Part shown: piece after piece, positions 24,690-64,000 of the stretch
How positions within the stretch are numbered: the stretch's first letter is position 1
Layout: each line of letters starts with the position of its first letter
Source of the DNA: Escherichia coli
GTDB lineage: Bacteria; Pseudomonadota; Gammaproteobacteria; Enterobacterales; Enterobacteriaceae
Direction: 5' to 3' (one strand)
NCBI RefSeq assembly: GCF_048403405.1
Contig: NZ_CP183129.1
DNA length: 64,000 nucleotides
Notes under the pieces: generated by a model
What the model was told of the DNA's origin: nothing
The model's input: the letters and a program-made list of their open reading frames with translations, nothing else
Database searches by the model: none
Translations under genes and position numbers: made by a program

Positions 24690-26972
24690 ATGTCCGAGCT
24701 TAATGAAAAGTTAGCCACAGCCTGGGAAGGTTTTACCAAAGGTGACTGGCAGAATGAAGTAAACGTCCGTGACTTCATTCAGAAAAACTACACTCCGTAC
24801 GAGGGTGACGAGTCCTTCCTGGCTGGCGCTACTGAAGCGACCACCACCCTGTGGGACAAAGTAATGGAAGGCGTTAAACTGGAAAACCGCACTCACGCGC
24901 CAGTTGACTTTGACACCGCTGTTGCTTCCACCATCACCTCTCACGACGCTGGCTACATCAACAAAGCGTTGGAAAAAGTTGTTGGTCTGCAGACTGAAGC
25001 TCCGCTGAAACGTGCTCTTATCCCGTTCGGTGGTATCAAAATGATCGAAGGTTCCTGCAAAGCGTACAACCGCGAACTGGACCCGATGATCAAAAAAATC
25101 TTCACTGAATACCGTAAAACTCACAACCAGGGCGTGTTCGACGTTTACACTCCGGACATCCTGCGTTGCCGTAAATCCGGTGTTCTGACCGGTCTGCCAG
25201 ATGCTTATGGCCGTGGTCGTATCATCGGTGACTACCGTCGCGTTGCGCTGTACGGTATCGACTACCTGATGAAAGATAAACTTGCACAGTTCACCTCTCT
25301 GCAGGCTGATCTGGAAAACGGCGTAAACCTGGAACAGACTATCCGTCTGCGCGAAGAAATCGCTGAACAGCACCGCGCTCTGGGTCAGATGAAAGAAATG
25401 GCTGCGAAATACGGCTACGACATCTCTGGTCCGGCTACCAACGCTCAGGAAGCTATCCAGTGGACTTACTTCGGCTACCTGGCTGCTGTTAAGTCTCAGA
25501 ACGGTGCTGCAATGTCCTTCGGTCGTACCTCCACCTTCCTGGATGTGTACATCGAACGTGACCTGAAAGCTGGCAAGATCACCGAACAAGAAGCGCAGGA
25601 AATGGTTGACCACCTGGTCATGAAACTGCGTATGGTTCGCTTCCTGCGTACTCCGGAATACGATGAACTGTTCTCTGGCGACCCGATCTGGGCAACCGAA
25701 TCTATCGGTGGTATGGGCCTCGACGGTCGTACCCTGGTTACCAAAAACAGCTTCCGTTTCCTGAACACCCTGTACACCATGGGTCCGTCTCCGGAACCGA
25801 ACATGACCATTCTGTGGTCCGAAAAACTGCCGCTGAACTTCAAGAAATTCGCTGCTAAAGTGTCCATCGACACCTCTTCTCTGCAGTATGAGAACGATGA
25901 CCTGATGCGTCCGGACTTCAACAACGATGACTACGCTATCGCTTGCTGCGTAAGCCCGATGATCGTTGGTAAACAAATGCAGTTCTTCGGTGCGCGTGCA
26001 AACCTGGCGAAAACCATGCTGTACGCAATCAACGGTGGCGTTGACGAAAAACTGAAAATGCAGGTTGGTCCGAAGTCTGAGCCGATCAAAGGCGATCTCC
26101 TGAACTACGATGAAGTGATGGAGCGCATGGATCACTTCATGGACTGGCTGGCTAAACAGTACATCACTGCACTGAACATCATCCACTACATGCACGACAA
26201 GTACAGCTACGAAGCCTCTCTGATGGCGCTGCACGACCGTGACGTTATCCGCACCATGGCGTGTGGTATCGCTGGTCTGTCCGTTGCTGCTGACTCCCTG
26301 TCTGCAATCAAATATGCGAAAGTTAAACCGATTCGTGACGAAGACGGTCTGGCTATCGACTTCGAAATCGAAGGCGAATACCCGCAGTTTGGTAACAACG
26401 ATCCGCGTGTAGATGACCTGGCTGTTGACCTGGTAGAACGTTTCATGAAGAAAATTCAGAAACTGCACACCTACCGTGACGCTATCCCGACTCAGTCTGT
26501 TCTGACCATCACTTCTAACGTTGTGTATGGTAAGAAAACTGGTAACACCCCAGACGGTCGTCGTGCTGGCGCGCCGTTCGGACCGGGTGCTAACCCGATG
26601 CACGGTCGTGACCAGAAAGGTGCAGTAGCCTCTCTGACTTCCGTTGCTAAACTGCCGTTTGCTTACGCTAAAGATGGTATCTCCTACACCTTCTCTATCG
26701 TTCCGAACGCACTGGGTAAAGACGACGAAGTTCGTAAGACCAACCTGGCTGGTCTGATGGATGGTTACTTCCACCACGAAGCATCCATCGAAGGTGGTCA
26801 GCACCTGAACGTTAACGTGATGAACCGTGAAATGCTGCTCGACGCGATGGAAAACCCGGAAAAATATCCGCAGCTGACCATCCGTGTATCTGGCTACGCA
26901 GTACGTTTCAACTCGCTGACTAAAGAACAGCAGCAGGACGTTATTACTCGTACCTTCACTCAATCTATGTAA
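24690..26972 (+). CDS. pflB: Pyruvate formate-lyase (formate C-acetyltransferase 1)
   Basis: 760-aa [47 protein letters not shown]... It has the glycyl-radical motif RVSGYAV near the C-terminus and the active-site CC (IACCVSPM). Confidence 0.98.
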
Positions 26973-27012
26973 TTAGATTTGACTGAAATCGTACAGTAAA
27001 AAGCGTACAATA

Positions 27013-27040
27013 AAGGCTCCACGAAAGTGGGGCCTTTTTT
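27013..27040 (+). terminator. pflB rho-independent terminator
   Basis: aggctccac-gaaa-gtggggcct followed by tttttt, about 40 nt after the pflB stop. Confidence 0.8.
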
Positions 27041-27165
27041 AGCACGAGAGCCTTTTTTGTCAGCTATCTATACTTTAAGGTGACTGCCAAAACAGACTCG
27101 ACGTAGCCTTCGAGCTGCGCACCAACACGGCCTCAGATGGGCCACATCTGGAGAAACACCGCAAT

Positions 27166-27178
27166 GTCAGTTATTGGT
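27166..27178. repeat. Prophage junction core, pflB-side copy (att core gtcagttattggt)
   Basis: Exact 13-bp direct repeat of 62789..62801; the flanking bases differ on both sides. It is preceded here by the native pflA ATG (27164..27166) and the native pflB-pflA intergenic DNA. Confidence 0.85.
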
Positions 27179-27253
27179 GACATTTTTTGATATCTAATTA
27201 CATGAAATAAAAGGATTTATTTCTTGTCACGTCCACACATTGACCACATCGAC

Positions 27254-27278
27254 AAAAAAGCCCCTCGACTGAGGGGCT
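27254..27278 (-). terminator. Rho-independent terminator after ogr
   Basis: The minus strand reads AGCCCCTC-AGTC-GAGGGGCTTTTTT, 13 nt after the ogr stop. Confidence 0.75.
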
Positions 27279-27290
27279 TTCTGTTTGTAA

Positions 27291-34253: not shown

Positions 34254-34353
34254 GCAGTATATAAAGGAACATGGGTTTACCGTTGTAAGATGCTGCTGAA
34301 AGGTAAGCATAATTATATTGTTAGGTGTCTTTTTATTTTTAAAGGCTTTAAAC

Positions 34354-35460
34354 ATGTCTAAAACACGCGATGATTTCAGCTCAAAAACTGTAAGAGCTCT
34401 AGCACTACGGGCTGGTTATAGGTGCTCATTCCCCGGTTGTAATCAGCTTACAGTTGGCCCCAGTGATGAATCCTTAACATCTATCACAAATATTGGGGTA
34501 GCTGCGCACATTCATGCCGCAGCTCCTGGGCCATTAGCAAGACGATATGATCCTAATCAAACACCAGATGAAAGGAAAGATATAAATAATGGCATCTGGA
34601 TGTGTGTTAATCACAGCGTTGAAATTGATAGAGATGAAATTAGATATACAGCAGAAATTCTTAAAGAAATGAAGAAAGCCCACGAAGAAGAGATTAAAAA
34701 AGAGGTGAGCAATGGTTCTTCATCAACCAAACATAATGATTTCATTGCAATAGGTATAGACATTATCGTTTTCGGAGAGCTTACCGGAATCTCAACCAAT
34801 GAGTGGACTATAAAATTTGCAAACTTCTTTACTGGCGATTTATCTAAGTTAATATCTTTCAACGAAAGATTCCACTCCATCCCTACCGAAGAAAAATTTA
34901 TTCTAGTTAATCAACTTGGTGAGGGGCGTTTGTTATCAGCACCAATAAAATTAAATAAATTACCAGATAGCTATGAAGTAATCGTCCCTGTTGAAATAGA
35001 CACTCCGCGCATCAATTGCAATAGCCTCCCAATGGATTTAGATATTTTCACGACAGGCGATTTATTTGTAAATAGTTCTGGTGATATAGCTACGATATCG
35101 GGGTTTGAAGCTTTACCACAAAAAATATATACTTCCCTTTCCACCATTAGAGGTGAGATTTATTCCCATCCAACATTGGGTTCCAGAATAAGACAGTTCT
35201 TCCATGACTTTGAAGGAACAATGTGGCTAGACAAATTAGTTAAATTAGAAGTTATACGCTTATCTTGTATACCAATTTTTGATTCAATCACAAAAAACAA
35301 ATACACTCCATTACATTGTGTAAAAAATGTCAAAAATATTCGGGTGATACCAACTGAATATAAAGATAGCAAATTACCTATTGAGTTCACCCTTGATATT
35401 GAAGGTTTCGGCATCTGGTCCAAAGAAATAAGTGTTTTCTCACCTAAATACGATGAATAA
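34354..35460 (+). CDS. Cargo protein: N-terminal HNH-type nuclease motif fused to a gpW/gp25-like C-terminal region
   Basis: ORF 34318..35460 was trimmed to ATG 34354 (MSKTRDDF, AAAGG 9 nt upstream; 368 aa). The HNH-like pattern is C-x4-C (CSFPGC) ... GVAAHIHAA ... NGIWMCVNHSVEIDRD. The C-terminal FEALPQKIYTSLSTIRGEIYSHPTLGSRIRQFFHD aligns by eye with this phage's own gpW LEHISQSIGDILRTPVGSRVMRRDYGSLLASMID. The gene is AT-rich and antisense to the flanking late genes. Confidence 0.6.
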   Translation: MSKTRDDFSSKTVRALALRAGYRCSFPGCNQLTVGPSDESLTSITNIGVAAHIHAAAPGPLARRYDPNQTPDERKDINNGIWMCVNHSVEIDRDEIRYTAEILKEMKKAHEEEIKKEVSNGSSSTKHNDFIAIGIDIIVFGELTGISTNEWTIKFANFFTGDLSKLISFNERFHSIPTEEKFILVNQLGEGRLLSAPIKLNKLPDSYEVIVPVEIDTPRINCNSLPMDLDIFTTGDLFVNSSGDIATISGFEALPQKIYTSLSTIRGEIYSHPTLGSRIRQFFHDFEGTMWLDKLVKLEVIRLSCIPIFDSITKNKYTPLHCVKNVKNIRVIPTEYKDSKLPIEFTLDIEGFGIWSKEISVFSPKYDE

Positions 35461-35983: not shown

Positions 35984-36985
35984 TCAGAATTTGACAGTAG
36001 GAACGGTTGGCCAGATTCTAGCAATAGACTTAAACATAGTCTCCACAATATATTCGAGAACCTCATCATCAGGCTCTTTCATTAATGCTTTTACTTTATT
36101 TATTCTATCCTGAAGTGAAGGGTGAGATTTTGAAAAACCCCAGTTGTTTTTACCTAACATAGTAACGCTGAATAATGCACAGTATATAGAAAGTCTTCTT
36201 TTCCTGCTCACCAACACACGGTCATACATAGACTCTTCACAGTAATTATCTATATGGTCAAGGATGAATTTATTTGCAAACTCATCACATGAGAACTCTT
36301 CATTATGAGCTTGTTCTTGTGTGAATTCATTCATATCATAACTGGTACCTTCCTGCTGATGAATGATATGTCGGACTTCATGCAAAAATGCCCAAGCAGC
36401 AGCAATAATTGCTAATTCAGCTGTTGCTCTTTTAACTGGTTCGATTTTACTGTCAGGCATGGTGCCAGGTTCAGGAATTCCTATTGGTAGTGGTTTTTCA
36501 TCCGGTACCTCATCTTTAGCCGTGTTTTCAAAAGCGCAGATTAACTGTTCAAAGTTTACGAAGTCTGCCGAACTGAAATCAGCAAGTTCTTCCTGTAGCT
36601 CCTCGAGTAAAACATGTAATTCTGACTCGGTTGAGACTAATGATATTTTCTTTGAGTCAAAAAGATCTAAAATAGAATCCCTTTTATCGATAATGTCTTC
36701 AATTTTTTTATTTTGCTCAGTGTTTATTGCTTCGTAGCCCGCCATTGCAGCAAATGTTCCTATCCAGAACGTGCGCAAAACACGATGATTGAAGCGGATA
36801 AATCGATACATCCCCGCATCAAAAATAAATTTACCGTCTGTATGATTATCGCTATGATTTTGGAAGGTCATGTTAAATTTAGACCAGAACTCATCCAGTT
36901 CATTCTGACGCTCTGGAATAGAGGCTAAAAACATTTTTCTTACGCTGTCCTGAACTGTTTTATCTTCATTATGCTCTTCAAACAT
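35984..36985 (-). CDS. Cargo protein with C-terminal ImmA/IrrE-like (HExxH) metallopeptidase motif
   Basis: ORF 35984..37045 (TTG start) was trimmed to ATG 36985 (MFEEHNEDKTV, AGGTGAG 5 nt upstream; 333 aa). The motif FLHEVRHIIHQ followed about 25 residues later by EEFSCDEFANKFIL resembles the HExxH...ExxANxFA signature of COG2856/M78 peptidases. AT-rich. Confidence 0.55.
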   Translation of the reverse strand: MFEEHNEDKTVQDSVRKMFLASIPERQNELDEFWSKFNMTFQNHSDNHTDGKFIFDAGMYRFIRFNHRVLRTFWIGTFAAMAGYEAINTEQNKKIEDIIDKRDSILDLFDSKKISLVSTESELHVLLEELQEELADFSSADFVNFEQLICAFENTAKDEVPDEKPLPIGIPEPGTMPDSKIEPVKRATAELAIIAAAWAFLHEVRHIIHQQEGTSYDMNEFTQEQAHNEEFSCDEFANKFILDHIDNYCEESMYDRVLVSRKRRLSIYCALFSVTMLGKNNWGFSKSHPSLQDRINKVKALMKEPDDEVLEYIVETMFKSIARIWPTVPTVKF

Positions 36986-37248
36986 TTGCTCACCTATATT
37001 GCTGTTAATTTTATCTAATGATGAACCGAGTGGGTTGTTTACCAAGCCTCATGTTACATGTTTTTTGCTTTCCGAATATTTAAGCGTTAGAAGCAAGTAG
37101 GAAAAACGTAGAGCAGTTAACCAAGGCTTTCTACAGGCAGATTAACATAACTTGGTCAGGAATGTCCGCTCTTGGCACATAGCGGACTGTCAGATTAGGC
37201 TTTACTCTGTGCTATAGATATGTAAGCTCACACCAGAGATCATACAAC

Positions 37249-52405: not shown

Positions 52406-53113
52406 CTATATATACTTCCTTTTTACTCTACTTAATTCTATCACTGATGAGGAGTGACAAAATGACAAATTAATAGTATCGATATAATCCAAAATTTGAC
52501 TCTCAACCTCAATAAAAATATTTTTGGGCCCATTACTAATCGATATACCGATTTCATCCAAAACAGCCATCATTTTTCTCTGATGAGTTTTATATTTATA
52601 GTCTTTATTTTCCTCTGTAATATGTGCATTGGCTTCCTCAATAACACATTTGATTCTAGATATTATTTCTAGATAATCTCTCGAAACAGATATATCACCG
52701 CCTTGCGCTTCAGGGAACATAACCCTATACCATCTAAAAAAATTAACTTTCTCTGGATAGATGCTACTTCTTTTAGTTAACTCAGCACTTGCAAATTCTC
52801 TAAACATCGTCAGATGACTAGTGTAATTACTATTATTATTATTTTTAACTCCAGCGTTATATGTCATCAAAGCAATCATAACACCAAAAACGGTAACAAA
52901 AGTTGTTATAAGCCATCCAAACGCCTGAAAATACATTACTATACCAGATGTTTTTTCCGCAAAAAATTTTAAGCACTGGCTATCGAAGCATATATCACGC
53001 TCATATAGCTTTTCATTCTGAATAGTTTCAAAAAGAGAAATTAGCGAAAAAATCAAAAAAAGAGCTGACGACACACCGACAATATATTTGAGAAGTCTAA
53101 TATTTGCATTCAT
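52406..53113 (-). CDS. Two-transmembrane protein translationally coupled to the RT (candidate effector)
   Basis: 235-aa ORF. TM1 is YIVGVSSALFLIFSLISLF and TM2 is IVMYFQAFGWLITTFVTVFGVMIALMTY, followed by a soluble C-terminal ~150 aa. The ATG overlaps the RT stop (ATGA at 53110..53113). AT-rich. Confidence 0.7.
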   Translation of the reverse strand: MNANIRLLKYIVGVSSALFLIFSLISLFETIQNEKLYERDICFDSQCLKFFAEKTSGIVMYFQAFGWLITTFVTVFGVMIALMTYNAGVKNNNNSNYTSHLTMFREFASAELTKRSSIYPEKVNFFRWYRVMFPEAQGGDISVSRDYLEIISRIKCVIEEANAHITEENKDYKYKTHQRKMMAVLDEIGISISNGPKNIFIEVESQILDYIDTINLSFCHSSSVIELSRVKRKYI

Positions 53114-54300
53114 AATGGTTTTAAAGATGCCAATCTAGATTTAAAACACTCCAGTTTTTCTTTAAATGATTCAGAGCGAGTAAGAATAATCATCTTATAT
53201 CTCGTCAAATCATATTTTCTTTTATACCAATGTTTATTTTGATTACCTTTCGAATACGACAACTCTAAACTTTTTATAGCTGCATCAATCACAGCAACAT
53301 CTCTTTTAGATGGCATCGGTTTTATTGCCTGCAACTGTTTCTTGAATGATTCATATTTTTCATGCCCAACACGGCCAAGCTTATTCACTCTCCCCATACA
53401 TCTATTGAATTCTTTTCTGTATGCAACACTTGTTTTTGTGTTATTTTTTGCCGCCAGTAATTTCAAATTATGTATAGATGCCCTGATTCTTTTGACTTCA
53501 TCGGATGGTAGTCGAGGTGAGTCATAGTCAACTCTTAAACCATGTACTTTTATAGGTTCAGATGAACAGTGAAATATTTTTGTTTTGTGCTTATTTATCG
53601 GCAAGTCATGCTCAGAAAGCATCCTCTCTATATGGCTTTGCATTTGAGAAAAATCATAATTACTTATTTTAGATGACACGGTAATATCATCTACCAAACG
53701 CGTATAAACAAGTCCTTTCCTCTGCGCACGTCTTACCACATCCCCTTCAACAGCGAATAAACACAAAGTTGCTATATAGCTTGATGTTAAGGCCCCCTGT
53801 ACGACAAAATCATCCTTAGTACATATATCCACCAAGTATTCAAGAGCCTCATCCTTAATATGCAATATCTCCTCAAACACGCTCCTAACCAGATCTCTAT
53901 GGATATTATCGAAAAAATTACTTATATCCACCTTGAGAACTGTTTTTGCTCCACAATGAGCCTTTGCACATGAAACATAGTCACGTTTGACATTAGAATT
54001 TAAAACATCATTTTTACTGGGAACTGAACCAAACAAAAATGAAGGAAAAACAACCAATTCCTTAAAAATACGTTTATTAATTCTACTCTGTAATAATCTC
54101 ATTTTAGGATGTAGGGAGTAGACAATCCGTTTGCTTCCGTCAATTTTGGGAATTTCTTTTAGAGTATATTTCTCATCTAATGATAATTCTGCAATAGCTT
54201 TAAGCTCTTCAACAGAAATCGATAAAGCCTTTGACAACTTTTCAAGTGTTGTGATAGGAGCATTGGATTTGCTGTATGGTTTAAATTTATCCATAAACAT
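53110..54300 (-). CDS. Retron-like reverse transcriptase
   Basis: RT motifs read from the ORF: KIDGSKRIVYSLHP (motif 1), LLQSRINKRI (2), VLKVDISNFFDNI (A), QGALTSSYIATLCL (B), YTRLVDDITVSS (C, YxDD-type), INKHKTKIF (D/E) and VHGLRV (a retron VTG-like position). The N-terminal LEKLSKALSISVEELKAIA segment is as in retron RTs. The start is ambiguous: ATG 54300 or 54294 is favoured, with ATG 54336 or TTG 54384 possible. Confidence 0.8.
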   Translation of the reverse strand: MFMDKFKPYSKSNAPITTLEKLSKALSISVEELKAIAELSLDEKYTLKEIPKIDGSKRIVYSLHPKMRLLQSRINKRIFKELVVFPSFLFGSVPSKNDVLNSNVKRDYVSCAKAHCGAKTVLKVDISNFFDNIHRDLVRSVFEEILHIKDEALEYLVDICTKDDFVVQGALTSSYIATLCLFAVEGDVVRRAQRKGLVYTRLVDDITVSSKISNYDFSQMQSHIERMLSEHDLPINKHKTKIFHCSSEPIKVHGLRVDYDSPRLPSDEVKRIRASIHNLKLLAAKNNTKTSVAYRKEFNRCMGRVNKLGRVGHEKYESFKKQLQAIKPMPSKRDVAVIDAAIKSLELSYSKGNQNKHWYKRKYDLTRYKMIILTRSESFKEKLECFKSRLASLKPL

Positions 54301-54552
54301 ACCATTCAAATTCAAAGTTACGTACGGTCTTCCCATACTCAAGGGTGGAACAGCAGAGATGCTTACATCAACAATTGTCAGCAACAGCCTCTGCTATCTT
54401 TCGACCGTACGTAATGTCGTCGGCTACGGCACCATCGTAGTTGACGACGGTGGGGCCTCGCTGATAGGTCCATAGTGGACGCTTTTTTGTAAAAGCAAAA
54501 ACTGACAATTTAATGTTGTTGACTGCCGCATACCAAGCGAATCGCTGGTGCG
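54301..54552 (-). ncRNA. Candidate structured non-coding leader (possible retron msr-msd) upstream of the RT
   Basis: About 250 nt lie between a predicted promoter and the RT ATG, with no credible ORF and dense inverted repeats. These are a 12-bp perfect IR 54318..54329/54403..54414, a compound hairpin 54416..54448 (GTCGTC-AA-CTACG-loop-CGTAG-CC-GACGAC), a 9-bp IR 54373..54381/54502..54510 and a 7-bp IR 54352..54358/54389..54395. I could not assign a1/a2 or the branching G uniquely. Confidence 0.35.
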
Positions 54553-54558
54553 CTAAGA

Positions 54559-54587
54559 ATAATGCAACAAAAAAATAAGAATTTCAA
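54559..54587 (-). promoter_or_regulatory. Candidate sigma-70 promoter for the RT leader
   Basis: The minus strand reads TTGAAA (54587..54582), a 17-nt spacer, then CATTAT (54564..54559). The predicted start is near 54552, within ...TCTTAGCGCACC. Confidence 0.35.
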
Positions 54588-54625
54588 CCGGGTAACTGCA
54601 AGCCAGCGACATCGTTTAGCGCGCA

Positions 54626-54644
54626 GTGCTTTCCCCGCCTCGCC
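54626..54644 (-). other. cos cohesive-end sequence (P2-type 19-mer)
   Basis: The plus strand gtgctttccccgcctcgcc is the exact reverse complement of GGCGAGGCGGGGAAAGCAC, the P2 cohesive end as I remember it. It sits in a GC-rich block (about 54590..54780) with repeats ccgg[a/c]acatgcaa at 54720..54732 and 54735..54747. Confidence 0.8.
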
Positions 54645-54805
54645 CGCCCGCTTCGTGGGGCGGTTTTAATGCAGGTGCAATACCGCTTTTGAGCCACGCC
54701 CGTCCTGGCGGACGCACGGCCGGAACATGCAACTCCGGCACATGCAAAACCATGCACATATTGCACGCAGAAAGATAAATGCCAAAATACCTAAATCAAC
54801 TTCCA

Positions 54806-56644
54806 TTAATCAGCCAGATAAGGTTCAACTTTATCTTCCCATACACTAAATAAAGGCAAACAAGTTAAATAAAAGATAAAGACACAGGCAAAAACTGAAG
54901 TTGGTTGATAACAATGATTTACAGTATACCTGCCATGAGCCATCGTGTGTCTAATTGCAGCACCACCTTTCATATTGAACAATAAATCCATAGTCAATAC
55001 ATGATCACTATCAAAAACACCTTCCATTTCACTCCTATAATTTGCAAGCATTTGAGATAGGCTAGTAGCCTCCTCAAAAAGCGACACATCTATTTTCGTT
55101 GTTTCTTTTCTTCTTAATTCTAAAATCCATCTAATTGAATTCTCCAATTGCGGCAATAACAAATAACAGGCAGACACATAATCTCCCTGCCAAAGCTTAT
55201 AAAACCCCAAAGAAAATATTTCTGCATACCCAGGTGGAACAAATGCACTTTGTTGTGAGATTGGGTCAAATGTATTTTCATTTAATGAATACCTAGCCAA
55301 CACACTTTGCCTAACGACTTCAAACTCACCACAAACATAGACCTGATGCTCAATGTTACTAGTTCTTAAATAATTTGCACAAGCATCATTTAAACTTATA
55401 TCCCCCGCAGGATCCAAAGGTGAACGACTTGCTACAACGCGCCCTCTATCATCATAAACAACCGTTTCACTCATATTAAGAAAAAAATGTTTTTTAGCAT
55501 CGGAACGAGCTCTTTCCATAATTTCACTGGCACTTACAATCTTAAATCTAGCAATTAAAGTTTTAATTACCCTTGAGAAATCCAATTGATTATAAACATG
55601 CTCTTTCTGAGCGATAACATCACTAAGATCCATTGGTATTGCAAAGAAGTGCATTTCATCATTGATTTGATCTCGAATAGAATTCAATTCCTCTCTAATC
55701 TTTTTAATTTCTTCATTCATTCCACCAATTGCTCTAAATTCGCCAAGAGCAACTCTTAACCAATGAGCCTTCAATATTGAAGATGAAGACTGTTCAAATT
55801 GAGCCAATGTTATTTCTGACGCTTTAATTCTGCACCGTCTTCCTTGCTCTTCCATATCGTTTTTAACATATAATTCAGACGCAAAATAAAACAATTTTTT
55901 CACTGCATCAAAATAAGACGCTCCACAATGCTCATCAGCTATCTTTTCTGCATTCTCAGCCAATTGCAAGGGACACAATAAATTATTCTTATAAAGAATT
56001 TCAGAAACTCTTAATACACCGGTGAATATACCAGAGTCTATTAATACATGATATAACCTTAATGTCGAATCAACTATCCCCCCTTGTAGTTGTTTTTTCC
56101 TGCCAATAAGCATGCGCGATATTGCGATACCTCTATCCAAGCAGTCAACAACATCAAAAATATGGATATCACCTGACTCTTGTTTTTCTATTAAAGTATC
56201 GCAAGCATCATTAACCATTAGAGAATATGACTCTATTGCTTTATTGGCAGAGTCTATATCCTTACGGTTATTTATCCATAAAACATCACACACCCTAGAT
56301 ATAATATAAGGATTATCGGAGTTTTCTTTAATACAAGTTAATATTGTTGAAAAACTCTCCTTATAATCTGAAGGCCTATAGCCCCTCTCAGGATAGAGAA
56401 TGATTTTTGGCTCAAAACCGATAATATCACCAGACCTAGAAAATTTAAAATTAAACAACGCACGTAATAAATAGCAAAGCCGCCAAGAACTTACATCGTT
56501 TTTTAGCTTGTAAGATGACAACAACTGAACAAAATAAGACTCCATATCAAAATGAGAATAACTTCTTGGCGATGATAATATACTGGCGTATTCACTTTTT
56601 TTAAAATCATCAACTGAAATAGAAAAAACATCAAACTCGCTCAT
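54806..56644 (-). CDS. 612-aa cargo protein of unknown function with C-terminal R-x4-H (HEPN-like) motif; candidate anti-phage/abortive-infection effector
   Basis: Uninterrupted AT-rich ORF with a strong SD (AAGGTGAGGA immediately upstream of ATG 56644). It is largely helical by composition. I could not find a P-loop, so it is not Old-like. The C-terminus reads YLLLPQLENSIRWILELRR...GGAAIRHTMAHGRY. It occupies the tin/old position between A and cos. Confidence 0.55.
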   Translation of the reverse strand: MSEFDVFSISVDDFKKSEYASILSSPRSYSHFDMESYFVQLLSSYKLKNDVSSWRLCYLLRALFNFKFSRSGDIIGFEPKIILYPERGYRPSDYKESFSTILTCIKENSDNPYIISRVCDVLWINNRKDIDSANKAIESYSLMVNDACDTLIEKQESGDIHIFDVVDCLDRGIAISRMLIGRKKQLQGGIVDSTLRLYHVLIDSGIFTGVLRVSEILYKNNLLCPLQLAENAEKIADEHCGASYFDAVKKLFYFASELYVKNDMEEQGRRCRIKASEITLAQFEQSSSSILKAHWLRVALGEFRAIGGMNEEIKKIREELNSIRDQINDEMHFFAIPMDLSDVIAQKEHVYNQLDFSRVIKTLIARFKIVSASEIMERARSDAKKHFFLNMSETVVYDDRGRVVASRSPLDPAGDISLNDACANYLRTSNIEHQVYVCGEFEVVRQSVLARYSLNENTFDPISQQSAFVPPGYAEIFSLGFYKLWQGDYVSACYLLLPQLENSIRWILELRRKETTKIDVSLFEEATSLSQMLANYRSEMEGVFDSDHVLTMDLLFNMKGGAAIRHTMAHGRYTVNHCYQPTSVFACVFIFYLTCLPLFSVWEDKVEPYLAD

Positions 56645-60896: not shown

Positions 60897-61193
60897 TTAT
60901 GTCGGAGCTTCATCAACTAGCTGGGCTGCGTACTTGTCCCACTCACGGCGATTAATCCATAACTCAGCATGACCGCCCGGCTTTAATGGGTCCGTCATAT
61001 AAAAGGCTGGTAACTTGCCTGCTTTCGCCATTTCAGCAACAGCGCGAGGCGTCTTACCGATGTAAAGAGCAAAACCCTCTTTCGAGAGCAAATCCGACGG
61101 TGCGGCTGCAAGTTTGATGTCACATTTTTTACTTTTTGTGAGATCAGATACTTTTTCTCCAACATCGTTATTCATTTCTGATCCAATACTCAT
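60897..61193 (-). CDS. cox: Cox-like excisionase / early-promoter regulator
   Basis: ORF 60897..61223 (TTG) was trimmed to ATG 61193 (MSIGSEMNN..., GAGGA 8 nt upstream; 98 aa). It is the first gene of the early operon, divergent from C. The segment FALYIGKTPRAVAEMAKAGKLPAFYMTDP is similar in pattern to the P2 Cox HTH region. Confidence 0.7.
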   Translation of the reverse strand: MSIGSEMNNDVGEKVSDLTKSKKCDIKLAAAPSDLLSKEGFALYIGKTPRAVAEMAKAGKLPAFYMTDPLKPGGHAELWINRREWDKYAAQLVDEAPT

Positions 61194-61297
61194 TTTGATA
61201 TCCTCAACTTTGGTGCCATTCAACCAGAGCTATTTGAAGCCGCTCTGCGTTGTTCTGGCGTGTCGCATACAACATAAATTACGAGATACGACAATTC

Positions 61298-61609
61298 ATG
61301 TCAAATACACAAATCACATCTCAAGCAGAGAAACTCGCACTTATTCGGGAATCAGAAAGAATGACAAGGAAGCAAGTTGCTGAATTAACTGGAATTAACT
61401 ACAACACCTATGCTGGATATGAGCAGGGAAAAGTAAAGATGTCTTTTGACGCAGGTATGAAATTTTTCAAGCCAGAAAGATTTCGCAAGTACCGTGACTG
61501 GTTCATGTTTGATGAAACTGATCCCGCTGGCGGACAAATAGCCCCGGCGCTCGCGCACATTGGGCAAGACTCAACAACCTTGCACCACTCAGACCAAAAG
61601 ACTGGCTGA
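61298..61609 (+). CDS. C: Immunity repressor C
   Basis: ORF 61250..61609 was trimmed to MSNTQITSQAEKLALIRESERMTRKQVAELTGINYNTYAGYEQGK (103 aa; HTH). The C-terminal GQIAPALAHIGQDSTTLHHSDQKTG is close to my memory of P2 C. It lies upstream of and co-oriented with int. Confidence 0.85.
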   Translation: MSNTQITSQAEKLALIRESERMTRKQVAELTGINYNTYAGYEQGKVKMSFDAGMKFFKPERFRKYRDWFMFDETDPAGGQIAPALAHIGQDSTTLHHSDQKTG

Positions 61610-61702: not shown

Positions 61703-62698
61703 ATGTCTATTAAAAAGCTCGATGATGGTCGTTATGAAGTGGACGTCAGACCGCAGGGTGCAGATGGAAAACGTATCAGGCGGAAATTTAAAACTAAAGG
61801 TGAAGCTCAAGCATTCGAACGTCATGTGCTGGTTAACTACCACAACAAAGAGTGGCTGGAGAAGCCAGCCGACCGCCGAACTCTTACAGAGTTGTTAGGC
61901 AGATGGTGGATATATCACGGAAAATCACATGAGCGTGGAAATATTGAACGGGGGCGTTTGACGACAATAATCGCCAAATTTGCAGAAATGGGGGTGTCCA
62001 GAGCTGACCAGTTAACAAAGAAAACGATAACTGATTATCGAGTTGTAATGATGAACGATGGTCTAAAACCAGCCAGCGTAAATCGGCATCTGGCAATAAT
62101 GAGCGGGATGTTCACCAAGTTAATTGACGCCGGTGAATACCACTCTCACAACCCGTTCCGTGAGGTTAAGCGGTTACGTGAAGCTGTTACAGAAATGGCT
62201 TTTTTGTCCAGTGAAGAGATTACGCGGCTGTTATCCATGCTTGATGGTGATGAGTTAAATGCAACTCTGGTCTGCCTTTCTACTGGTGGACGCTGGAGTG
62301 AAGTGTCTAATTTGAAAGCTGAACACATCATTAACCAGATGGTTACGTTTATGAAAACTAAAAACGGAAAGCGCAGGACAATTCCCGTTTCGCAGGACCT
62401 GATTAAAAGGATCAAGACCAAAAATTCAGGCAGGCTTTTTAATGCCAGTTACTACAAAGTGCGTAACGCTCTCAGGGAAGTAAAACCCGATTTACCTGAC
62501 GGACAAGCAGTACATGTTTTGAGGCATACATTTGCCACACATTTTATAATGAATGGAGGTAACATAATCACATTGCAGCGCATCCTGGGTCATTCTAACA
62601 TTCAGCAAACTATGACCTACGCACACTTTGCACCGGATTTCTTACAAGATGCTGTGACTCTTAACCCGGTGTCAGGAATGTCCATAATGCGTCCATAA
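61703..62698 (+). CDS. int: Tyrosine integrase (P2 Int family)
   Basis: 331-aa ORF MSIKKLDDGRYEVDVRPQGADGKRIRRKF... It has the catalytic signature GGRWSE...HVLRHTFATHF...TMTYAHF (R..HxxR..Y) and lies adjacent to the right junction. Confidence 0.93.
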   Translation: MSIKKLDDGRYEVDVRPQGADGKRIRRKFKTKGEAQAFERHVLVNYHNKEWLEKPADRRTLTELLGRWWIYHGKSHERGNIERGRLTTIIAKFAEMGVSRADQLTKKTITDYRVVMMNDGLKPASVNRHLAIMSGMFTKLIDAGEYHSHNPFREVKRLREAVTEMAFLSSEEITRLLSMLDGDELNATLVCLSTGGRWSEVSNLKAEHIINQMVTFMKTKNGKRRTIPVSQDLIKRIKTKNSGRLFNASYYKVRNALREVKPDLPDGQAVHVLRHTFATHFIMNGGNIITLQRILGHSNIQQTMTYAHFAPDFLQDAVTLNPVSGMSIMRP

Positions 62699-62729
62699 AC
62701 CAGAGTTAACTAGAGCCAATTGAAGCGAT

Positions 62730-63527
62730 ATGAGTAATTTAACTAATTGTAATACAACAGAAAATACCGCTACGGCGGGGGCTACCAAGTCAGTTATTGG
62801 TCGCATTCACTCCTTTGAATCCTGTGGAACCGTAGACGGCCCGGGTATTCGCTTTATCACCTTTTTCCAGGGCTGCCTGATGCGCTGCCTGTATTGTCAT
62901 AACCGCGACACCTGGGACACGCATGGCGGTAAAGAAGTTACCGTTGAAGATTTAATGAAAGAGGTGGTGACCTATCGCCACTTTATGAACGCTTCCGGCG
63001 GCGGCGTTACCGCATCCGGCGGTGAAGCAATCCTGCAAGCTGAGTTTGTTCGTGACTGGTTCCGCGCCTGCAAAAAAGAAGGCATTCATACCTGTCTGGA
63101 CACCAACGGTTTTGTTCGTCGTTACGATCCGGTGATTGATGAACTGCTGGAAGTAACCGACCTGGTAATGCTCGATCTCAAACAGATGAACGACGAGATC
63201 CACCAAAATCTGGTTGGAGTTTCAAACCACCGCACGCTGGAGTTCGCCAAATATCTGGCGAACAAAAATGTGAAGGTGTGGATCCGCTACGTTGTTGTCC
63301 CAGGCTGGTCTGACGATGACGATTCAGCGCATCGCCTCGGTGAATTTACCCGTGATATGGGCAACGTTGAGAAAATCGAGCTTCTCCCCTACCACGAACT
63401 TGGCAAACACAAATGGGTGGCGATGGGTGAAGAATACAAACTTGATGGTGTTAAACCACCGAAGAAAGAGACCATGGAACGCGTGAAAGGCATTCTTGAG
63501 CAGTACGGTCATAAGGTAATGTTCTAA
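62730..63527 (+). CDS. pflA: Pyruvate formate-lyase activating enzyme (radical SAM), with phage-derived start and 19-residue N-terminal extension
   Basis: From [38 protein letters not shown] onward the ORF is canonical PflA (native MSVIGRIH...). The native ATG is at the other junction (27164). The only upstream in-frame ATG is 62730, in phage DNA. Gene identity is high confidence; the actual start codon is uncertain. Confidence 0.85.
62789..62801. repeat. Prophage junction core, pflA-side copy (att core gtcagttattggt)
   Basis: Exact 13-bp repeat of 27166..27178. It is followed by native pflA codons (cgc att cac tcc...). Confidence 0.85.
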
Positions 63528-63537
63528 TTTCCCCGTA

Positions 63538-63568
63538 AAGCGGCAACTTTTTTGAGTTGCCGCTTTTT
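63538..63568 (+). terminator. pflA rho-independent terminator
   Basis: agcggcaact-tttttg-agttgccgct followed by tttttt, 11 nt after the pflA stop. Confidence 0.8.
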
Positions 63569-63736
63569 TATTCCGCTCTGCATAAATAATTCAGAGCTCT
63601 ATTTCTAACGCCCTTACAGCACAGCTTCCAAATGTATTACCCAAACCGCCAGTATATGTCCTGCGGCTTACGCGCATTTCTCGATTATGTAAAAACGGGT
63701 CAGATCTGCCAGAGTCAGCGTCACCGACCACAATAA

Positions 63737-64000
63737 TTATTTACCATTCGCTTTACGCGCCAGCAGCGGGAATATCAGTCCTAATCCTACCAACACAAAC
63801 GGCGTTGCAACATTCAGCGCCAACTGGAAGGTCCACTCTGCAGTGAAGGCTTCCATTTTCGGGAAAATACCAGTCAAACAGGCAAAGGCGGTAAAGGCAA
63901 AACACCAAATCCCGACGGTCATTGCCAGAGGCTTATTACGAATAAAGACATATTCTGGTTTATATTTCTGCGCCAGGCGAACGACTGCAATAAATGCAAC
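63737..64000 (-). CDS. C-terminal part of an inner-membrane transporter-like protein (5' part beyond the right edge)
   Basis: The minus-strand frame is open from the window edge to the stop at 63737: ...VAFIAVVRLAQKYKPEYVFIRNKPLAMTVGIWCFAFTAFACLTGIFPK...LIFPLLARKANGK, which is hydrophobic. It is possibly ycaM-like, but I cannot confirm that from memory. Confidence 0.6.
   Translation of the reverse strand, partial: VAFIAVVRLAQKYKPEYVFIRNKPLAMTVGIWCFAFTAFACLTGIFPKMEAFTAEWTFQLALNVATPFVLVGLGLIFPLLARKANGK

Follow-up and report, generated by a model that had tools for sequence, protein, structure and literature searches.

We analysed a 64,000-nucleotide stretch of the Escherichia coli contig NZ_CP183129.1 (assembly GCF_048403405.1), hereafter the window, in which a P2-like prophage is integrated at the very beginning of pflA, the gene for the activase of pyruvate formate-lyase (PFL). 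Our analysis suggests that this prophage probably rebuilds the 5' end of the gene that it splits, since a start cassette carried in its attachment (att) region provides an ATG at position 62730, lacking a Shine-Dalgarno sequence, and a set of codons running in frame into pflA, while in intact lysogens transcription is likely to arrive by read-through from the phage promoter Pc. The phage ATG is very probably the working start of PflA, because its position is conserved, the frame behind it is always open and appears to be under weak purifying selection, and ATG and frame are kept in relics that have lost the prophage.

The prophage is bounded by a 13-bp core, GTCAGTTATTGGT, which occurs exactly twice in the window, at 27166–27178 (attL) and at 62789–62801 (attR), with a spacing of 35,623 bp. 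This core corresponds to codons 2–5 of pflA, and the prophage has recombined with the first codons of the gene. Joining the outer flanks of the two copies yields the uninterrupted pflA 5' region of strain MG1655 (attB) as an exact match, and joining the inner flanks gives a sequence that departs at 2 of 232 nt from attP in the free phage Peduovirus P24A7b. Because the joined flanks rebuild both the MG1655 attB and a free-phage attP, the two copies represent a genuine attL/attR pair rather than a chance repeat. The attR copy sits within an inverted repeat, ACCAA-N8-TTGGT, as read from the sequence, which presumably contains the core-type Int sites, and which may explain why the phage copy has AAG instead of ATG at the position of the native start. 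At attL, the native pflB–pflA intergenic region is left stranded (26972–27163, plus strand); it carries the pflB terminator and, we assume, the native pflA promoter and ribosome-binding site. Directly behind it lies the severed native start (27164–27190, plus strand), where ATG 27164 and the core run into phage DNA and encode only MSVIGDIF*. An earlier reading made from the letters of the window alone (the sequence-only reading) had placed the core, this short frame with the native intergenic region and ATG, the int stop and the phage ATG 31 nt beyond that stop, and all of these positions held on re-checking. Excision of the prophage would restore native pflA exactly.

The 35.6 kb between the cores make up a P2-like (Peduovirus) prophage, whose DNA is 96–99.8% identical to that of phages pro147, pro483, P24A7b, D8, 11W and S164 and of several phages that plate on Yersinia pestis. 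The gene order at its right end, cox (minus strand), C (plus strand), int (plus strand) and attR, is the P2 arrangement, with cox divergent and int transcribed towards att. The cox-like gene is an open reading frame (ORF) at 60897–61223 on the minus strand, probably starting at ATG 61193; in homologous prophages its counterparts are annotated 'Cox family DNA-binding protein' and match the Pfam family Phage_Cox. The gene for the immunity repressor C (61298–61609, plus strand) is the first gene of the Pc operon, and the P2-type repressor is known to be the first gene of its operon (PMC3448106). The int gene (61703–62698, plus strand) encodes a P2-type tyrosine integrase of 331 amino acids, reads towards attR and pflA, and ends with a TAA at 62696–62698; this Int is 53% identical to the Int of P2 and 55% identical to that of Wphi, and its homologues match the Pfam families Int_N and Phage_integrase.

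Direct arm repeats of the P2 type (consensus tgTGGaCa; PMC3448106) are present on both sides of the core. In the P arm, TGTCCATA at 62679–62686 and CGTCCATA at 62690–62697 (together 62679–62697) overlap the last int codons and are kept in relatives, and the P' arm (27179–27256) holds two further repeats, GTCCACA at 27231–27237 and GACCACA at 27242–27248. Next to the P' arm is a terminator-like hairpin with a 10-bp stem (27257–27280, plus strand), which the lysogen has at attL and the free phage has after int and attP. This hairpin, located between att and ogr, looks bidirectional and after integration lies directly 3' of the severed pflA start, where it would insulate the late-gene activator ogr from host transcription of pflB and pflA.

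The integration position itself has been reported before, as Nilsson and co-workers list MG1655 coordinate 950293 for the att site of PhiD145 and PhiD160 and assign the same site identity to ECA29, a prophage of Pectobacterium atrosepticum (PMC3448106). In the MG1655 record NC_000913.3, pflA spans 950340–951080, and the published coordinate fits the core only under the older version of that sequence. We take the offset between the versions to be ~+777, which would place the published coordinate ~10 nt inside the 5' end of pflA, within the core. That PhiD145 uses this attB gains independent support from the site identity that it shares with ECA29, an Int of the ECA29 type being found at pflA. 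The integration module in our window is P2-type and, by site, probably of the PhiD145 class, the PhiD145 records AM158280, AM159077 and AJ298559 not being among the matches in the phage collection; positions 62699–62801 are the P-arm-to-core part of the attR of such a prophage.

At attR, the int stop is separated from the phage ATG by a spacer of 31 nt (62699–62729, plus strand), which has no Shine-Dalgarno sequence, almost no secondary structure, and an in-frame TGA at 62721–62723. The ATG and the 19 codons after it form a phage-coded leader (62730–62789, plus strand) that replaces Met1 of PflA, and the rebuilt pflA (62730–63527, plus strand) encodes 265 amino acids, identical to the RefSeq protein WP_000067979.1 of strains with the same junction, which PGAP calls from the same ATG. 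No other ATG, GTG, TTG or CTG is found in frame upstream of Cys30 in the CxxxCxxC motif. The predicted product consists of 20 phage residues followed by native residues 2–246, a net gain of 19; residues 21–265 are identical to residues 1–245 of chain A of the crystallised E. coli PflA (3C8F, E = 5e-173), and the Cys codons of the radical-SAM CxxxCxxC motif are in place. The proposal of the sequence-only reading that a phage ATG replaces the pflA start and adds 19 net residues is thus supported by its being the only canonical in-frame start before the Cys motif, and comparison with relatives, described below, supports it as a real start.

We propose that the P arm of this phage lineage acts as a gene-start cassette 31 nt after int, consisting of an ATG and 19 codons in frame into the core. 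Because the cassette runs in frame into pflA codons 2–5, integration would not knock out the gene; it would exchange Met1 for a hydrophilic, probably disordered leader of 20 residues, giving a 265-residue activase that is otherwise wild type, and this chimeric PflA is probably made and active. In an AlphaFold2 model based on an alignment of 64 sequences, the predicted local distance difference test score (pLDDT) is below 50 for residues 1–18, the remainder is confident (mean 88.6), and the first strand begins at residue 24. The PflA of Providencia has a native N-terminal extension rich in Thr, Ala and Glu, preceded by an ordinary GGAG ribosome-binding site and an ordinary pflB–pflA intergenic region. 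Together, the disordered tail on a confidently predicted fold and the native Providencia extension argue that N-terminal tails of this size and composition are tolerated in nature. The Providencia extension (locus L145, 1361–1580), which reads MSAEIITTTDITKTEAPATL before GRIH, also resembles the phage leader in composition, and its stretch ATTACAACA recurs in some leaders; the phage cassette may conceivably stem from a host.

To relate the window to other genomes, we gathered relatives in three ways, by similarity of Int, by similarity of PflA and by a DNA pattern. A search of IMG/VR returned 80 Int-related loci, of which ~10 gave arm sequence, most predicted prophages ending at the int stop, and a protein query with the 63 N-terminal residues returned mostly short fragments and few extra leaders. 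The question raised by the sequence-only reading, whether other prophages with this int use the same site, has an affirmative answer: relatives with integrases 73–100% identical to that of the window lie at pflA in at least nine genera, with an ATG exactly 20 codons before pflA codon 2. Same-site prophages were found in E. albertii, three Scandinavium species, Pseudescherichia vulneris, Rahnella, Citrobacter portucalensis and several unassigned metagenome contigs. In P. atrosepticum, the ECA29-type Int, 74% identical to that of the window, adjoins pflA and is followed by the same kind of 265-residue chimeric gene, with the leader MNNSNTCFSTEKPDIAEAVK and then SVIG. In Klebsiella pneumoniae, a 265-residue PflA with the identical E. 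coli-type leader is listed on 336 contigs.

In this small sample, membership of the pflA site class goes with an Int identity of at least 73% to the window Int. A Hafnia relative (69% Int identity, beside a phosphoribosyltransferase gene) and a Salmonella relative (64%) were rejected as members, as they occupy other sites. The integrase gene of the former (L148, Hafnia paralvei) adjoins the phosphoribosyltransferase gene and a gene for an SlmA-like regulator of the TetR family; the latter (L149, Salmonella enterica) is at another location, and locus L086 has a different sequence after int, with an ORF of only five codons.

The leader frame is conserved across these relatives. In 17 of 17 loci tested, the ATG lies exactly 23 codons before Gly5 of PflA. 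We collected 33 distinct 60-nt leaders, which encode 24 peptides, plus that of ECA29. The 33 leaders contain no stop codon in the pflA frame, compared with 78 and 89 in the other two frames, every variant being interrupted in both; from base composition alone, the chance of an open frame would be 0.12–0.32 per variant. The pairwise ratio of non-synonymous to synonymous differences (pN/pS) is 0.53 in the pflA frame versus 1.20 and 0.96 in the control frames. These values indicate that the pflA frame of the leader is under weak purifying selection. The leader is conserved in its 5' third (MSNLTxC...E) and variable beyond it, yet always hydrophilic there, being rich in Thr, Asn, Ala, Ser, Lys and Glu and devoid of Arg and aromatic residues; the variable 3' half (codons 12–20) stays open as well. 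Within the conserved third, Cys7 (window 62748–62750) is invariant in 25 of 25 peptide variants, with a single TGT-to-TGC change in the relic L093, which may reflect a constraint on attP at the DNA level or a property of the peptide.

The cassette is also found where the prophage is gone. Relics with the ATG, the leader and an intact pflA, in which C is absent and int is absent or reduced to ~190 bp, occur in Salmonella enterica and at loci L093, L095, L097 and L134. In S. enterica (L091, 970–2560; L102–L104), the order is pflB, a SopD-family gene on the opposite strand, and a 265-residue pflA, with no int or C gene; judging by its position, we take the SopD-family gene to be probably sopD2. 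The leader ATG is directly preceded by the arm and the decayed 3' end of an int gene, with 69% identity to a Scandinavium prophage over 157 nt, and no canonical start follows this ATG. Because leader, arm and decayed int 3' end flank pflA, the SopD-family effector islet of Salmonella seems to occupy the site of a former PhiD145-class prophage. Two alleles of the Salmonella relic have flanks that are ~91% identical and leaders that differ at ~25% of positions, with no stop and no indel. At L093, pflB and pflA are separated by 431 bp, which include ~190 bp of an int 3' end that is 92% identical to a Rahnella prophage.

Since the relics can no longer recombine, attP function cannot explain their open frame, and selection for translation of pflA can. 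Salmonella is a formate-producing, gas-forming fermenter, and its leader-bearing PflA is therefore evidently functional. The predicted tryptic leader peptide of S. enterica is (M)SNLTDCITNESVAVTADK. In S. bongori, a truncated protein corresponds to a frame-shifted reading of the native upstream region, suggesting that this species keeps the ancestral pflB–pflA arrangement. We rejected a 6565-member PflA cluster as a count of Salmonella cases, as it mixes 246-residue and 265-residue PflAs from many genera, and a decayed P2-type Int in S. enterica subsp. houtenae (H75; one of the more distant relatives) as a pflA relic, as it adjoins cpxP at another att site.

Several points weigh against our explanation. 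A Shine-Dalgarno sequence, which the sequence-only reading had judged weak, is effectively absent before ATG 62730, where the best anti-Shine-Dalgarno duplex reaches −2.1 kcal/mol, the value that random 20-mers of the window give on average, compared with −6.4 kcal/mol for native pflA and −10.0 kcal/mol for int. The first ~11 leader codons (~33 nt) are conserved at the DNA level, third positions included, and since they sit where P2-type attP sites carry sites for accessory proteins, part of this conservation may serve recombination; the fixed leader length of 60 nt could mirror spacing constraints on attP. Leader variants are phylogenetically related, so that our counts overstate their independence, and the DNA pattern used on metagenomes itself imposed the leader length and several bases. 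Rahnella-type arms (L008, L057, L058, L061, L066, L107 and L112) have an ATG at the native pflA start in addition to the upstream leader ATG, and the relic L093 has a GTG at that position; the upstream ATG may therefore not be needed in these lineages. Finally, when the window and the relic loci were scanned for promoters, the hits did not exceed what shuffled sequence would give, and none recurred at a fixed place in the arm.

As for initiation, ATG 62730 lies in an AU-rich stretch with a predicted structure of −2.7 kcal/mol over 63 nt. This weakly structured context is compatible with low-level initiation that is independent of a Shine-Dalgarno sequence, and we propose that translation would start in this manner from the almost unstructured region around the ATG. 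In the group formed by the Rahnella-type arms and L093, most of the variable sites fall at the third position of a codon (ACT/ACC/ACA, GGA/GGT/GGG, CAT/CAC/CAG).

How the rebuilt gene would be transcribed can be judged from the anatomy of the junctions. The native pflA terminator (63537–63566, plus strand) is the first terminator-like site on the plus strand downstream of C, our scan having found none between C and this terminator. The terminator of the C–int operon lies beyond the attP core and is moved to attL by integration, which makes pflA, anatomically, the third gene of the Pc operon and renders C–int read-through plausible. At attL, the hairpin at 27257–27280 would stop host transcripts coming from pflB and from the old pflA promoter. 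In the intact lysogen, transcription would thus most likely run from Pc through C and int into pflA, and on this anatomy read-through is most likely the main route.

The alternative that survives best concerns transcription only and would place a pflA promoter inside the int 3' end or the P arm in lieu of read-through from Pc. The relics retain just ~150–200 bp of the int 3' end and the arm and yet keep pflA, and a promoter-like sequence, TTAACC-16-CATAAT, is present at 62661–62688. However, this site scores 9/12, shuffled sequence contains more sites of this kind than the region does, and the relatives do not share the site; nor does anything stop the C–int transcript before pflA. We judge an arm promoter to be a serious possibility that falls somewhat short of an even chance, and the two routes are not mutually exclusive. 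As the relic lineages have lost C and most or all of int while leader and pflA are intact, a route independent of Pc must exist in them, and our proposal of read-through would need to include this second route. The sequence-only reading had named read-through and an arm promoter as the two possible sources of expression: the former gains from the lack of a terminator between C and pflA and is not required in the relics, and for the latter no conserved promoter was found. The link that it drew between formate metabolism and transcription of the immunity gene is speculative; Pc in a lysogen and the native pflA promoter are both roughly constitutive.

A reading that we consider improbable would limit the arm to attP function (Int arm, IHF and Cox sites, core spacing), or to a small phage peptide encoded across attP, with the pflA fusion as a by-product. 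The DNA-level conservation of the first ~33 nt speaks for it, as does the free phage's ORF of 27 codons across attP (MSNL...TKSVIGDIF*), and P2-type attP arms are known to require precisely spaced protein sites (PMC3448106). When the IHF consensus WATCAANNNNTTR was sought by eye in the arm, only candidates with two mismatches were found. A constraint from DNA binding, however, predicts neither the avoidance of stops in one specific frame (0 versus 78 and 89) nor a lower pN/pS in frame 0 alone. Codons 12–20, which are variable, also stay open, and relics that no longer recombine, with int decayed or gone and attL gone, keep both the ATG and the open frame.

It is similarly unlikely, in our estimation, that the leader is a phage-evolved module that alters the production or behaviour of PflA (by the invariant Cys7, the Pc read-through and the start without a Shine-Dalgarno sequence), tuning host fermentation and making the attR arm indispensable. 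If this were true, an indispensable attR arm would explain the fixation of relics, including the one with a SopD-family effector gene in S. enterica.

Plain disruption, with pflA inactivated by the prophage, the in-frame phage ATG a coincidence, and lysogens that either do without PFL activase or use another activase, has less still to recommend it and is very unlikely. In its favour, a recent review lists ECA29 as disrupting pflA (PMC13492144), no Shine-Dalgarno sequence precedes the phage ATG, and integration has taken away the native promoter. Against this, an intact, translatable target is left by the integration, as every junction examined, the ECA29-type included, has a 265-residue ORF that begins with the conserved ATG; the leader frame is uninterrupted in the 33 variants while the other two frames are always interrupted; and relics keep the leader and an intact pflA long after decay of the phage, in S. 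enterica through a leader divergence of ~25% without stop or indel. Of 5426 complete E. coli genomes, 404, about one in fourteen (~7%), carry the int–pflA junction, and pflA is annotated as an intact coding sequence in every junction row listed; a query limited to the int 3' end, arm and core detects 424 of the 5426 genomes, 393 of them at ≥95% identity. Least probable of all is a non-canonical start near the native position, at the ATT codons at 62796 and 62805 (Ile4 or Ile7), with the upstream ORF untranslated or irrelevant: the Rahnella-type ATG and the GTG of L093 do suggest pressure for a start there, but no Shine-Dalgarno sequence precedes either ATT, ATT initiates at roughly ≤1% of the efficiency of ATG in E. 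coli, and the retention of the upstream ATG and open frame in every lineage, even those with an ATG at the native position, would be left unexplained.

Our preferred reading, in which the phage cassette supplies the start of PflA, implies that a prophage inside a gene is not by default a knock-out, as pflA, including the published ECA29 case, appears to be rebuilt around a start codon of phage origin. An enzyme central to anaerobic metabolism would then rely on phage-derived signals for translation, and probably also for transcription, in E. coli, Klebsiella, Citrobacter, Pectobacterium, Rahnella and others. A ratchet is suggested by the relics: with its native start region gone, the host could no longer dispense with the phage arm, and pflA of S. 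enterica appears to have been permanently re-headed by a phage leader, with a SopD-family effector gene at the former position of the prophage. It also follows that annotations of a 265-residue PflA should not be dismissed as mis-called starts.

Two further features of the window lie outside the junction. The variable regions of the P2-like prophage (52406–56644, minus strand; 34318–35460, plus strand; 35984–37045, minus strand) hold probable anti-phage cargo. This comprises a type IV retron-like pair (RT_IV, E = 1e-176; 2TM_IV, E = 4e-85), a candidate for PDC-S39 (E = 2e-68) and a protein whose N-terminus resembles an endonuclease effector; a further match, Lit-like, is weak. Downstream of the rebuilt gene, at 63528–63737, the strain lacks ycaK and the greater part of ycaN, the genes usually found after pflA, and ycaM follows almost directly. 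Strain EFF60 shows the same loss of ycaK and ycaN, with an annotated LysR-family pseudogene that lacks its N-terminus; strain EC10 has both genes.

Already known are the integration position, from PhiD145, PhiD160 and ECA29, and the 265-residue protein annotated in RefSeq. In the accessible literature on pflA with P2-like phages, prophages, attB, sopD2 and Peduovirus, we found no account of a phage-supplied start codon or leader, and the paper on pro147 is silent on the pflA att site. What appears to be new is that a gene-start cassette is kept across genera, that the disruption reading is to be corrected for prophages of the ECA29 type, and that S. enterica carries a relic that has become fixed. 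The closest relatives, PhiD145, PhiD160 and PhiECA29, share with the prophage in our window a P2-type integrase beside att, P2-type arm repeats and probably the same chromosomal position; they differ in their description, the accessible literature giving the site as a coordinate without a phage-supplied start codon and leader, and ECA29 being called a disruption.

Comparable behaviour has been described for elements with dusA-specific integrases, which replace the 5' coding sequence of their target with an in-frame substitute, putative promoters being present after insertion (PMC4482086, Farrugia et al. 2015). As at pflA, insertion takes place in the 5' end of a protein-coding gene, and the element supplies an in-frame start and N-terminal codons. 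Integrase family and target gene differ, however, the Int of our window being of the P2 type, so that the likeness is one of behaviour and not of family membership. Moreover, the dusA replacement mimics a native N-terminal β-strand, whereas PflA receives a non-homologous tail of 20 residues and loses Met1 only. The classical case of a prophage substituting a gene end is the integration of phage 21 and of e14 into icd, which stays functional. There, too, the gene that is entered serves metabolism, and the prophage brings a substitute for the coding end that it displaces; at icd, however, this is the 3' end in a near-identical copy, while at pflA it is the 5' end, including the start codon, ribosome-binding site and promoter context, and is not a copy of the host sequence. 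A third parallel is phage HK022, whose integration swaps the torS promoter for a phage promoter (PMC13492144). In both cases, a host gene downstream of att comes under phage-derived transcription signals, a replacement that we infer at pflA; unlike that of pflA, the coding sequence of torS is not rewritten.

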